Positions 50,176-55,660 of a stretch of DNA of 64,000 nucleotides are shown piece by piece. Each line of letters begins with the position of its first letter. The stretch's first letter is position 1. The DNA comes from Thermoanaerobaculia bacterium (GTDB lineage: Bacteria > Acidobacteriota > Thermoanaerobaculia > Multivoradales > J023), in NCBI GenBank assembly GCA_030431255.1, contig JAUIJL010000005.1:29313-93312 (forward strand). The letters are read 5' to 3'. The notes under the pieces are model-generated. The model saw only the letters and a list, made by a program, of their open reading frames with translations, was not told the DNA's origin and did no database searches. The position numbers were made by a program, and so were the translations under genes.

Positions 50176-52278
50176 ATGCCCACGGAAAAACCACATCTCG
50201 ACACTCAGCCGGCAAAGGCGGCCGAAAATCCGCCGTGGGTGGTGTTGGTGGGCTTGCCTCAGGCGACGGTGGAAGACCTGCGAGCCACAGCCGACGCATC
50301 CGAGGCACCTCCATTCCGAATCCAATCGTTCACGGCCCATCAGGCGGAGGCCCTTCCCAGCTCGGACCTTCCCAGCTCGGACCCTCCTGGTAGCGGACCG
50401 AGGGTGCTGGTGCTCGGGCCCGAGCTATCGGCCGAAGAGGGCCGAGAGCTGATCCAACGGACCTCGGACCTGGATCCGTGGCGGCGAGCGCACAATATTG
50501 TGCTCGGGGCGGGCGCCGGTATCCGTCACTTTCACGATCTGGTGGTCGAGGATCGAGCCTATTTCCTGGCCCGGGATTTTCCGAGCTCGGTGGAGACCCT
50601 GGCCTTGATCCGCTCCGCGCTCAGCCACGGATCGCTCTACGGCGACCCGGAGAAGCCCCGCACCTTGGAGCGGCTCCTGGACCATCGATCCAAGAACAAA
50701 CGCGTTCAAGCCGACTCTCCGGCTGAAATCGTGCTCAATGAGGTCGTCGGCCAAAAGAATCTTGCCGGTCTGCTCGGTCGCACCACCCGCATGTTGGAGC
50801 GTCTGGTCAGCGCCGATCGGACCGATTGCTTCCTTTACGAGCCCGCGTCGGACACCCTGCGCTCGTTCCAAGCTCCCAGCCACGAGCAGGACAGCTTGGC
50901 CGCAGGCACCATCGCCTTTGCGATGCGCACCGGCTCGATCCAGATCCTAGAACGGACCTCGGATTCTCCTTTCTTCGACCCAGATTTGGATGGGTTTCGA
51001 GCCGATGGTCACGGGCAGGCAGACGGAAAAGCCCGCCTCCTGGTGGTCCCGCTGACGGTCCGTGGCCCACGCTCCATCGGCATCGAAACGACCGCCCCCC
51101 GAGGGTACCCGGCCTTTGCTGTCTGGGTGGCCTGGAGATCCGCTCACCGAGAGCCCTTCGATCCGGACGACGCGCGCAACGTCCAACGCACCACAGGCCC
51201 CCTCATCCCTTTGATCGCGGACCTCCTGTTGCAGGAGGAGCAGCAGAATCTGCTGCGACAATCCCAAGCCGGTGCCGACGCCCCCGGTGGTCGTGGATCC
51301 TCCAGCCAACGCATCTCGTTCCGAGCGGAGGCCCTTCAGCACTATTACGAAGGAGCCCCGGACCACGGCGAGATCTTGCGCATCAGCCCGGAGTGGACCC
51401 GCTACGCCTATCCTCTGCTGCTGCTGCTCTTCGTCAGCGCCATCCTCTTCAGCATCTTCGCCAAAGTGCACGAATACGCCGAGGGCGTGGGCATCGTGCG
51501 CCTCCAGGGACGTGTCGACGTCAACGCTCAGGTGGGCGGTACGGTCAGCCGAGTCCTGGCGCAGCCCGGCCAGGCGGTCGAGAAGGGTCGGCTTCTGGTC
51601 AAGCTTTACGACGTGCAAGAAGAGGCCGAGCTGGAACGCGTTCAGCGGGAATTCGAGCTCGGGCTGTTGGATCGGCTGCGCCGGCCGGCGGATCCGGTCA
51701 CTGCCCGTACTCTCGGTGCCCTTCGGGCGCAGCGCCAGCTGGCCCTATCGCGGCTGGAAGAACGTTCCGTTCGCGCTCCGGTGGCGGGCATCGCCAGTGA
51801 TATTCGGGTGCAGCCCGGGCAGCTGCTCGCTCCCGGTGAGGTGATTTTGTCGCTGCATCGACAGGACGAGAGCCAACGGCTCCTGGGCATTCTTCCCGGC
51901 CGCTACCGACCCCAGATCCAAGTGGGAATGCCCTTGCGATTCGAGCCCGAAGGCTTCCGCTACGCCTACCAGCACTTGGTCGTGGACGCGGTCAGTGACG
52001 AGGTCTTCGGACCGGCCGAGGCTCGGCGCATCCTCGGCCCCGGCATCGGTGACGCGGTGCCGATCTCGGGCCCGGTGGTGTTGATCGAGGCTCGTCTGCC
52101 CATGGGTTATTTCGAAAGTGAGGGCACCGTCTACTCGTACCACGACGGCAGCCTCGGCCGATTTGAGCTCAAGGTGCGGTCGGAGCGCATTCTGCTCACC
52201 CTGGTCCCCGGCTTGAAGGCCCTATTCGCTGAACGGGAAGCTCCAGCAAAGACGCCACCAGAAAGCGCGTCACCATGA
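50176..52278 (+). CDS. HlyD-family type I secretion membrane fusion protein (bacteriocin/NHLM-type) with an unusual roughly 400-aa N-terminal cytoplasmic extension (GAF-like fold suspected)
   Basis: A single TM (YAYPLLLLLFVSAILFSIF) at about aa 410, followed by a HlyD-like biotin-lipoyl/coiled-coil/beta-barrel region (VGIVRLQGRVDVNAQVGGTVSRVLAQPGQAVEKGRLLVKLYDVQEE...). Confidence 0.7.
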   Translation: MPTEKPHLDTQPAKAAENPPWVVLVGLPQATVEDLRATADASEAPPFRIQSFTAHQAEALPSSDLPSSDPPGSGPRVLVLGPELSAEEGRELIQRTSDLDPWRRAHNIVLGAGAGIRHFHDLVVEDRAYFLARDFPSSVETLALIRSALSHGSLYGDPEKPRTLERLLDHRSKNKRVQADSPAEIVLNEVVGQKNLAGLLGRTTRMLERLVSADRTDCFLYEPASDTLRSFQAPSHEQDSLAAGTIAFAMRTGSIQILERTSDSPFFDPDLDGFRADGHGQADGKARLLVVPLTVRGPRSIGIETTAPRGYPAFAVWVAWRSAHREPFDPDDARNVQRTTGPLIPLIADLLLQEEQQNLLRQSQAGADAPGGRGSSSQRISFRAEALQHYYEGAPDHGEILRISPEWTRYAYPLLLLLFVSAILFSIFAKVHEYAEGVGIVRLQGRVDVNAQVGGTVSRVLAQPGQAVEKGRLLVKLYDVQEEAELERVQREFELGLLDRLRRPADPVTARTLGALRAQRQLALSRLEERSVRAPVAGIASDIRVQPGQLLAPGEVILSLHRQDESQRLLGILPGRYRPQIQVGMPLRFEPEGFRYAYQHLVVDAVSDEVFGPAEARRILGPGIGDAVPISGPVVLIEARLPMGYFESEGTVYSYHDGSLGRFELKVRSERILLTLVPGLKALFAEREAPAKTPPESASP

Positions 52279-54575: not shown

Positions 54576-55660
54576 AGATCTCCGAGCGCCTCAAGGAATC
54601 GACGATCCTGCGTTCCGGCTTGCTGGTCGCCACGGGCGTCGCGGCCGGAGCCGTGTTGATGCTCGGCCTGCGAGCCGGACCGGACTCGGGACCGACCACC
54701 GCCCTGACCACGGACGAGACGTCGAGCGCGAGCGCGTCCCAGGCGGCTCGATCTCCGGCTCCGGCTCCGGCTCAAACCCTAAATGCGAACGCGGAGCCGG
54801 GCTGTTTCGTCGGCGCCTTGGTGCCCCGGGAAGAGGCAGATGTAGCCGCTGAGATCGAAGGTATTCTCGAAGGCTTGAACGTCAGAGTGGGAGATCGCGT
54901 GCAAGTCGGCGATCCGCTGGCGACCCTCGATACGCGCGCTTTGAGCCATCAATTGGCCATCGAGGAGGCGAATCTCAAAAGCGCCGAGGCGGAGCGGAAA
55001 AAGCAATCGATCGAGGTGCAGCGCGCGGCCCAAGAAGAGCAGCGCCGACTTGCCCTCTCGGGTTTGGTGTCCCGCGAGGAAGGTGAGGCGGCGGCCTTTC
55101 GAGCGAGCAGCGCCAAAGCGAGCTTGGAAGCGGCCGAGGCCCGGTCGAATCAGGTCCAAGCGCGAATCGACGAGATCAGCGACATCCTCAGCCGGTCGGT
55201 GCTCCGGGCGCCGTTCACGGGCCTGATCTCCCGGCGGTACCTGGATCCCGGCTCGCGGACGCTTGTCGGCACACCGGTGGTGCGGCTGGTTCGGCTCGAC
55301 GATCTCATGGTGCGATTCGCGGTGCCGTTGGAAGTGGCCGAAGACCTCGAACCCGGCGATTCGATCCGCGCGGAGCTGGTCAACGAGCGCTCGGCCTGGT
55401 CGGGCGTCGTCGAGCAAATCGCTCCGGAAATCGATCCGGCCGCCCTCTTGGTCTTCGTCGAGGCCCGGCTGGAAACCCCGAATCCATCTGCTGAATCGGG
55501 CGCCGACTCCCTGGTCTTCGGCACCGAAGCCCGGGTCAGTCTGACCGACCCCGGGCAAGATCCGCCGAAATGTTTGACCACGGAGCCGAAGTCGGCAGCG
55601 GCCGTAGGGGCGGGGCTTGCCCCCACCCGCTCCAGCGAGTTGAAGCTTCAAGATCGCTGA
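54572..55660 (+). CDS. Second membrane fusion protein (periplasmic adaptor, HlyD/AcrA-like), translationally coupled to the ABC gene
   Basis: N-terminal TM, biotin-lipoyl-like ATLDTRAL...RAPFTGLIS motif pair, coiled-coil. Confidence 0.75.
   Translation: MKISERLKESTILRSGLLVATGVAAGAVLMLGLRAGPDSGPTTALTTDETSSASASQAARSPAPAPAQTLNANAEPGCFVGALVPREEADVAAEIEGILEGLNVRVGDRVQVGDPLATLDTRALSHQLAIEEANLKSAEAERKKQSIEVQRAAQEEQRRLALSGLVSREEGEAAAFRASSAKASLEAAEARSNQVQARIDEISDILSRSVLRAPFTGLISRRYLDPGSRTLVGTPVVRLVRLDDLMVRFAVPLEVAEDLEPGDSIRAELVNERSAWSGVVEQIAPEIDPAALLVFVEARLETPNPSAESGADSLVFGTEARVSLTDPGQDPPKCLTTEPKSAAAVGAGLAPTRSSELKLQDR

Follow-up and report, generated by a model that had tools for sequence, protein, structure and literature searches.

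A candidate export module with a sensor-type adaptor at a lanthipeptide locus of a Thermoanaerobaculia bacterium

An exporter operon near a class II lanthipeptide gene pair

The 64,000-nucleotide stretch analysed here (hereafter the window; contig JAUIJL010000005.1, positions 29,313 to 93,312, assembly GCA_030431255.1 of a Thermoanaerobaculia bacterium) carries on its plus strand three consecutive genes encoding a peptidase-containing ATP-binding cassette (ABC) transporter and, on either side of it, a membrane-fusion protein (MFP); about 5 kb away, on the other strand, lie the lanA and lanM genes of a class II lanthipeptide. We consider it likely, with a probability of roughly three in four, that these three genes are dedicated to the lanM/lanA cluster and encode the machine that processes and exports its peptide, as orthologous lanA genes directly adjoin orthologous transporter operons in five other lineages. 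Most of what is known about lanthipeptide export comes from Gram-positive bacteria; the two-membrane route of diderms, as well as its regulation, is poorly understood. The locus offers a concrete, testable module that would combine a LahT-like transporter, a first adaptor with a sensor-type domain in the cytoplasm and a second that is MacA-like, and that recurs in ~30 lineages, tied to class I/II lanthipeptide, graspetide and radical-SAM clusters. Judged from sequence, its particular interest would lie in the sensor-domain adaptor, the two-adaptor design and a natural series of adaptor deletions.

An earlier sequence-only reading of the window had placed the three open reading frames (ORFs; 50176-52278, 700 aa; 52275-54575, 766 aa; 54572-55660, 362 aa) exactly and had taken them to be translationally coupled; the sequence does show the 4-nt start/stop overlaps (ATGA) at 52275 and 54572, and GC content at third codon positions is coding-like throughout (0.74, 0.84 and 0.77 in gene order, in a window of 63% GC). 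That reading put an MFP on each side of the transporter: both flanking products match HlyD_3/HlyD_D23 in Pfam, but the upstream one, MFP1, is only half an MFP, its aa 1-380 forming a predicted cytoplasmic receiver-like plus GAF module. It also regarded the transporter as the sole C39 ABC of the window, which is correct among complete genes, while a truncated ABC ATPase (3′ end at 2-847, plus strand, with a C-terminal cyclic-nucleotide-binding domain and cut by the window start) could not be judged. Pfam, NCBIfam and Rfam agree with its description of the exporter as lying on the strand opposite lanM/lanA, with a sulfatase gene and a riboswitch-controlled btuB between; the stop codons of the second adaptor gene (MFP2) and lanA are 5041 nt apart.

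The middle gene (52275-54575, plus strand) encodes a LanT-type peptidase-containing ABC transporter (PCAT) composed of a C39 peptidase domain (nt 52404-52790), a transmembrane domain (TMD; 52875-53678) and a nucleotide-binding domain (NBD; 53862-54311), recognized by Pfam as Peptidase_C39 (PF03412; aa 44-172, E 7.6e-31), ABC_membrane (aa 201-468) and ABC_tran (aa 530-679), respectively. The C39 residues Gln48 (oxyanion), Cys54, His128 and Asp144 are all present and align with those of LahT and PCAT1, and the nearest solved structure to this domain is LahT150 (6mpz, E 1.4e-29), the part of a lanthipeptide-cluster PCAT that acts as leader protease, followed by PCAT1 and ComA. The full-length transporter aligns with PCAT1 (4ry2) at 409 bits over aa 44-742, and carries a Walker A motif (GSSGAGKS) at aa 547 and an ABC signature (LSGGQ) at aa 651. 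Ahead of the C39 domain stands a 40-residue N-terminal extension (aa 1-40, 52275-52400, plus strand) with an (NG)5 repeat, SNGNGNGNGNGS. An exact-sequence look-up of the transporter and of LanM returned no public record.

The presumed substrate is encoded by lanA (60702-60914, minus strand), whose 70-aa product consists of a 48-aa leader ending in LTGG and a 22-aa core, CSYGTFCPTSAICSPCPPKHCY, and scores 56.9 bits against the mersacidin/lichenicidin model TIGR03898 (cutoff 23.5). Positions -4 and -7 of the leader are Leu and positions -12 and -15 Val, and such an amphipathic hydrophobic pattern is the consensus of double-glycine leaders; with 11.6 bits against TIGR03793 (cutoff 50.9), it is not of the NHLP or Nif11 kind. 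A search for LanA homologues yielded 65 clusters with the source labels Holophagales, Thermoanaerobaculia and Acidobacteriota. Among the 47 homologues that were aligned, the GG pair is invariant (47/47) and the core, CSxxxxCPTSAxCSPCPPKHCY, is strongly conserved. These core peptides, from metagenome-assembled genomes under the same labels, would represent an uncharacterised family with a ready-made processing enzyme. The class II lanthipeptide synthetase is encoded by lanM (61011-64000, minus strand; TIGR03897, 897.5 bits, cutoff 304), whose frame stays open to the window edge and whose 5′ end lies beyond it; LanM orthologues are 1066-1120 aa long.

A GMC-family oxidoreductase gene precedes lanM in every orthologous locus (for example at 17982-20773 in L083 and 20782-22260 in L001, both on the minus strand, and likewise in L134, L136, L137 and L139), and in L083 it is in turn preceded by genes for a nitroreductase-family protein and a YcaO protein; the counterpart of this region in our genome would lie past position 64000. 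These neighbours hint at further modification of the core, which is rich in Cys, Ser and Thr, for instance by oxidation or the formation of azol(in)es.

Comparison across lineages is what favours the union of pump and lan genes. A scan of genome contigs with the ABC sequence gave only two true relatives, the loci L001 and L002; the other 78 loci carried generic ABC transporters (~30-38% identity) and were excluded. In L001 the transporter is 89% identical over the whole protein, btuB and its riboswitch (15239-15445) are kept, and there is no sulfatase gene. In a further locus, L083, MFP1 is 50%, the TMD-NBD part of the transporter 81%, LanM 69% and LanA 84% identical to their counterparts in the window, and here a stretch of only 78 nt, without a riboswitch, btuB or any other gene, separates the end of the MFP1-ABC-MFP2 operon from the lanA-lanM pair convergent with it. 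Searching in a second direction, outward from LanA homologues rather than from the pump, we found that four further lineages (L134, L136, L137/138 and L139/140) share one order: LanM is preceded by a GMC oxidoreductase and followed by one LanA gene or two, and then comes a convergent C39-ABC, which adjoins the last lanA gene and is 61-72% identical to that of the window.

In all, lanA lies 20-370 nt from the end of the orthologous transporter operon in L083, L134, L136, L137 and L139, whereas btuB and its riboswitch intervene only in the window and L001 and are absent from these five loci. Moreover, identities to the window for the ABC TMD-NBD, LanM and LanA (90/83/96% in L001, 81/69/84% in L083, 72/53/61% in L137, 69/53/70% in L136, 68/53/67% in L134 and 61/43/47% in L139) fall in parallel, as would be expected if the three were co-inherited as one unit. 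The same leader type, ending in VVGG, is found in three LanA paralogues of L112, a more distantly related cluster.

The most economical interpretation is that the lan locus was once contiguous and was split, in the lineage of the window and L001, by btuB with its riboswitch and a redoxin gene, the sulfatase gene probably having been inserted later and in the window's own lineage only. The intervening genes vary between lineages, since L001 has btuB and a TPR-redoxin gene and lacks the sulfatase gene, while lanMA and the pump persist. The sequence-only reading had left the choice between a split lanthipeptide locus and a separate exporter, and these comparisons favour the former. Two findings that it had named as refuting its proposal were also looked for: no dedicated lanT is found upstream of lanM in the relatives, where the GMC oxidoreductase gene stands instead, and the 107-nt gap before 50176 is too short for a cognate precursor gene. 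For genome mining, it follows that lan clusters can be split by unrelated insertions, and exporters encoded several kilobases away should therefore not be dismissed.

The 107-nt gap separates the pump from a glycan-type operon (41661-50068, plus strand) with three GT4 glycosyltransferase (GT) genes, a polysaccharide deacetylase, a CapK-like AMP-ligase and a 717-aa protein that has no Pfam match and resembles, weakly, the putative glycosyltransferases LA_3751/LA_3752. The pump might be read as the last genes of this operon and as a glycan or glycolipid exporter of the DevBCA/HepA ABC-MFP type: the operon is on the same strand, no terminator is predicted in the gap, the order of GT operon and pump is kept in L001, and HepA and MsbA models match the TMD-NBD part, as they do for any type-1 exporter. 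We think this very improbable, however, as the LahT-like C39 domain, which glycan export does not need, has kept its catalytic residues, and as the GT operon is not beside the module in L083, L002 or any metagenome locus, whereas the lan linkage is conserved where GT genes are lacking. The GT operon and the 717-aa protein were also considered as parts of the module and rejected, being conserved only in L001.

The two adaptors and a possible export mechanism

The first adaptor is the most unusual component of the putative lanthipeptide exporter. MFP1 (50176-52278, plus strand; AlphaFold model with pLDDT 86.4) matches Pfam HlyD_3 only in aa 447-590, and the model divides the protein into four parts: a (beta-alpha)5 receiver-like domain (aa 21-155, nt 50236-50640), defined by the secondary structure of AlphaFold models; a GAF domain (aa 183-366, nt 50722-51273), assigned from Pfam at family level and from Foldseek, this copy falling below Pfam detection; an amphipathic helix with the motif FRAEAL followed by a single transmembrane (TM) helix (aa 377-428, nt 51304-51459; model helices 377-391 and 406-428); and a periplasmic part made up of lipoyl and beta-barrel domains and a short alpha-hairpin, 2 x 23 residues long (nt 51463-52245; model helices 480-502 and 507-529), the MFP body spanning aa 430-690. 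With its cytoplasmic N-terminus, one TM segment and periplasmic lipoyl, hairpin and barrel domains, the modelled protein resembles the MFPs of tripartite type I secretion systems. The same 700-aa protein also occurs in public records (P0001), on a short Logan contig that ends directly after MFP1.

When aa 1-375 are modelled separately (pLDDT 87.8, pTM 0.88), the top Foldseek match is the REC-GAF dual-sensor kinase 6oap over 362 aligned columns, and the GAF domain matches those of PDE, PtsP and DosS proteins with target-normalised TM-scores of 0.6-0.76. The periplasmic part of MFP1 matches MacA (3fpp, 9qgy), MexA and EmrA (E ~1e-13 to 1e-14). A profile of the N-terminal domain gave no significant hhalign match to CheY (E 0.4), and in that non-significant register Gly81 takes the place of the phospho-acceptor Asp57. 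We would thus, with low certainty, regard aa 21-155 as receiver-like and probably not phosphorylatable.

Full-length MFP1 gave six matches among 5.8 billion proteins, and an exhaustive phmmer search with aa 1-400 gave 136 representatives, mostly 500-750 aa long. Among the 58 that were scanned with Pfam, GAF_2 was found in 47, GAF in 33, HlyD_3 in 42, PilZ in eight and Response_reg in one (E 0.0034), and G26, G81, R383, L401 and W407 are near-invariant in the family; Gly244 and Asp272 of the GAF domain are invariant. Two members seem to be fused to the C39-ABC itself; such fusions, together with the PilZ domains, suggest second-messenger input and tight coupling to the transporter within this family. 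MFP1 is, on the modelled structure, not a plain HlyD protein, and the large cytoplasmic sensor-type domain on an adaptor appears to be the new point here: a full-text search of open-access papers and preprints turned up no account of a RiPP (ribosomally synthesised and post-translationally modified peptide) exporter whose adaptor bears a GAF domain. The closest precedent by domain content is a group of proteins that join GAF to HlyD or biotin-lipoyl domains in SecA_DEAD, Peptidase_M50 and HlyD loci, whose function was stated to be unknown and for which a regulatory role was suggested (PLoS One 2015, PMC4452313). Those loci likewise pair a GAF-HlyD adaptor with a second, plain HlyD protein; in contrast, the partner here is a C39-ABC (in 48 of 48 loci, see below) with RiPP linkage, and the window contains no SecA_DEAD or Peptidase_M50 gene.

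Shortened versions of MFP1 in the loci with LanA orthologues form what amounts to a natural deletion series. In L136 the protein has 380 aa (12668-13810) and retains the receiver-like domain, GAF domain, FRGEAL helix and TM segment without a periplasmic part; in L139 (236 aa, 12609-13319) and L137 (191 aa, 12751-13326) an FRxxAL helix and TM segment are followed by a reduced periplasmic part; and in L134 (72 aa, 12724-12942) nothing is left but FRAEAI and the TM segment, all four genes being on the minus strand. The FRxEA[LI] helix with its TM segment, preceding the PCAT, is the only adaptor part common to all these reduced orthologues, and we infer from its invariance across proteins of 700, 380, 236, 191 and 72 aa that it is the element that contacts the transporter.

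MFP2 (54572-55660, plus strand; 362 aa) is a TM-anchored adaptor of the MacA/RND type with a full-length hairpin, above the cutoff of TIGR01730 (127.1 versus 94.9 bits). Its alignment to MacA (aa 81-326) runs nearly gap-free across the hairpin, and its best sequence match in the PDB is the fused TriA-TriB chain (6vej, E 7.5e-19). These likenesses could be taken as signs of a self-protection or drug-efflux pump with a MacAB- or LanFEG-like function rather than a maturation exporter, the more so as MacA and MexA are the closest structures to the periplasmic part of MFP1. We give this explanation next to no credence, as the transporter is not an ABC of the MacB/FtsX or LanFEG type but a type-1 exporter that includes a peptidase, and as its C39 domain with an intact active site points to leader cleavage.

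Taking the three genes as the lanthipeptide exporter, export might proceed as follows. LanM would dehydrate and cyclise the 22-residue LanA core; the C39 domain, through Cys54, His128 and Asp144, would bind the amphipathic double-glycine leader and cut after Gly48; and the ABC dimer would carry the core over the inner membrane. The two single-pass adaptors would assemble around the transporter, MFP1, with its short hairpin, touching it via the FRAEAL helix and TM segment, and MFP2, with its hairpin of MacA length, docking a TolC-type channel encoded elsewhere. The receiver-like and GAF module of MFP1 could then couple export to a cytoplasmic ligand or partner. Specifically, we offer the tentative suggestion, one that may well prove wrong, that the pump is a PCAT with a two-adaptor hetero-oligomer in which this module serves either as a gate operated by a ligand (for example, a nucleotide second messenger) or partner, or as a docking platform for LanM-LanA. 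In that case RiPPs would be secreted by a type I-like system with two adaptors and regulation by a signal, a design for which the open-access papers and preprints searched gave no precedent.

By analogy, such a system would work like LanT and other PCATs in its inner-membrane step and like CvaAB-TolC in its periplasmic part. With the LanT/AMS/PCAT group (LahT, 6MPZ; PCAT1, 4RY2; ComA, 8HF7) it shares the C39 domain, six-helix TMD and NBD, the catalytic Gln/Cys/His/Asp residues, the double-glycine substrate and the LanM/LanA gene neighbours; it differs from them in the 40-residue extension with its NG repeat and in model scores below the cutoffs (given below), and Gram-positive LanT proteins work without MFPs, whereas this PCAT is translationally coupled to two. 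CvaAB-TolC, the exporter of microcin V, likewise joins a PCAT to a single-TM MFP in a diderm host with an outer-membrane factor (OMF) encoded elsewhere, and the N-terminus of CvaA carries an FRxxAL-type motif. However, CvaAB-TolC has one adaptor, while there are two here, the first having a short hairpin and, in the cytoplasm, a sensor-type module of 380 residues; the score against TIGR01843 is 41.7 bits (cutoff 208.65), and the substrate here is a post-translationally modified lanthipeptide. Two non-identical MFP genes per transporter are also found in TriABC-OpmH (6VEJ), although TriC is an RND protein, not an ABC or PCAT, and the Tri adaptors lack a cytoplasmic sensor domain.

Recurrence of the module and the case for a general exporter

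The pairing of an MFP1-like adaptor with a C39-ABC extends well beyond the loci with LanA orthologues. A metagenome scan with an alignment of nine MFP1 adaptor sequences found 49 loci, which together with the earlier ones make 53 loci from ~30 lineages at 70% identity. Where the contig continues, a C39-ABC follows the MFP1 homologue in every case (48/48); in the five loci outside this count the contig ends within ~150 nt of the adaptor gene. The operon of the window has a single ABC gene, as do the 48 related loci, and an MFP2 homologue is present in 20 related loci, where it lies downstream of the ABC gene, divergently upstream or directly upstream. Genes for RiPP enzymes occur near the module in 18 loci (13 of 22 when only those with flanks of 5 kb or more are counted), and are of several kinds: LanM, class I LanB/LanC (confirmed with Pfam), MvdD-type ATP-grasp ligases and radical SAM/SPASM proteins. 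Given the constancy of the C39-ABC and the variety of these neighbours, the module appears to be an export cassette for RiPPs, employed again and again by different clusters.

The same distribution raises the question of whether the pump is a general or promiscuous exporter of RiPPs or bacteriocins whose main double-glycine substrates are encoded outside the window, its nearness to lanA being incidental. PCATs such as LahT are promiscuous, the module stands beside four RiPP chemistries, and the best NCBIfam model of the transporter is the NHLP-type ABC1 model TIGR03796; all of these speak for a general exporter. On the other hand, in five independent lineages the lanA and transporter orthologues lie side by side, with identities that co-vary, no other ORF with a double-glycine leader of LanA's type is present in the window, and the defining features of the NHLM systems are not found, so that we regard a general exporter as unlikely.

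NHLM (NHLP/Nif11) systems use a three-gene export cassette recognized by TIGR03794, TIGR03796 and TIGR03797 (Haft et al. 2010, PMC2887384). The pump resembles them in its best ABC model, its HlyD-like partner and its association with RiPP clusters. However, NHLM cassettes have a second, peptidase-less ABC (TIGR03797), whereas the operon here has none; both adaptors score far below the TIGR03794 cutoff of 156.2 (MFP1 34.3 bits, MFP2 20.4 bits); the transporter is likewise below its model cutoff; and the precursor is not of the NHLP/Nif11 type. Membership in NHLM, which the sequence-only reading had named in its separate-exporter alternative, was rejected on these grounds.

Several observations nevertheless weigh against the three genes being a dedicated lanthipeptide exporter as proposed. 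First, although its alignments to TIGR03796 and TIGR01193 span the full length, the transporter scores 632.9 bits against the former (cutoff 853.3) and 401.3 bits against the latter (cutoff 523.85), and therefore belongs to a divergent PCAT subfamily outside these curated equivalogs. Second, 9 of the 22 well-flanked loci have no RiPP enzyme near the module, and thus the pump may also serve unlinked substrates; the neighbours at loci without RiPP enzymes are unrelated genes (ribonucleotide reductase, a DUF11 giant protein, a GGDEF protein, amidohydrolases and GT2). Third, MFP2 is absent from L134, L136, L137 and L139, so that this peptide family has no strict need for two adaptors. Fourth, no OMF gene is found in the operon and none recurs in the related loci. 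Finally, a sigma-70 promoter scan of 49800-61100 returned no sites, and the receiver-like assignment of MFP1 is drawn solely from a predicted fold.

With regard to the outer-membrane step, OMFs are often encoded unlinked. Three finds in the window, BtuB, a PilQ secretin and an OEP domain (the last within an RND operon at 8904-13325), mark the host as a diderm. The premise of the earlier reading that a diderm exporter of this kind needs an MFP plus an OMF does not hold universally here, as the orthologous loci just mentioned have a first adaptor of 72-380 aa and no second one.

Genes between the pump and lanA, and elsewhere in the window

The sulfatase gene (55713-57647, minus strand; Pfam Sulfatase, E 2.1e-39), absent from both L001 and L083, is lineage-specific filler outside the export system. 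Beyond it lie btuB (57734-59632, minus strand; TIGR01779, 323 bits, below the model cutoff of 599.7) and its cobalamin riboswitch (59661-59925, minus strand; Rfam, 50.1 bits versus a gathering score of 31.5). Next comes the decayed remnant of a TPR-redoxin gene (60017-60657, minus strand), in which tblastn recovers only aa 1-153 (33% identity) and aa 371-426 (64%), the middle being gone. Its counterpart in L001 is intact (15586-16866, minus strand, 426 aa; Pfam Redoxin and TPR) and lies between btuB and lanA. No other related locus has a homologue of this TPR-redoxin gene that would make it a recurrent partner of the module; a redoxin gene beside the module in L121 is unrelated to it (at E 1e-5). 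A terminator-like hairpin with a 13-bp stem and a T-run (60618-60647, minus strand), found by a consensus scan only, lies 55 nt past the lanA stop codon and would end the lanMA transcript ahead of btuB.

Farther from the pump, the window contains an ECF sigma factor gene of the PF07638 type (8092-8802) and, at 17412-19964 (plus strand) and 26406-32246 (minus strand), a sigma-54 activator with a GAF domain of its own and a pilMNO-pilQ block for type IV pilus assembly. The RND operon includes a 1473-aa ORF (8904-13325, minus strand) in which an AcrB-type RND protein (ACR_tran, aa 9-998) continues in frame, with no stop between, into the TolC-type OEP domain; upstream of it are an MFP gene (13322-14452, minus strand) and a TetR gene (14600-15289, minus strand). 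The junction of the two parts is a signal-peptide or TM-like stretch, GMGRRSLAAASIAFVVIVTGLVWVDPAAAA, and the ORF could either result from the loss of a stop codon or encode a genuine fusion of RND and OMF, one that signal peptidase might then cut.

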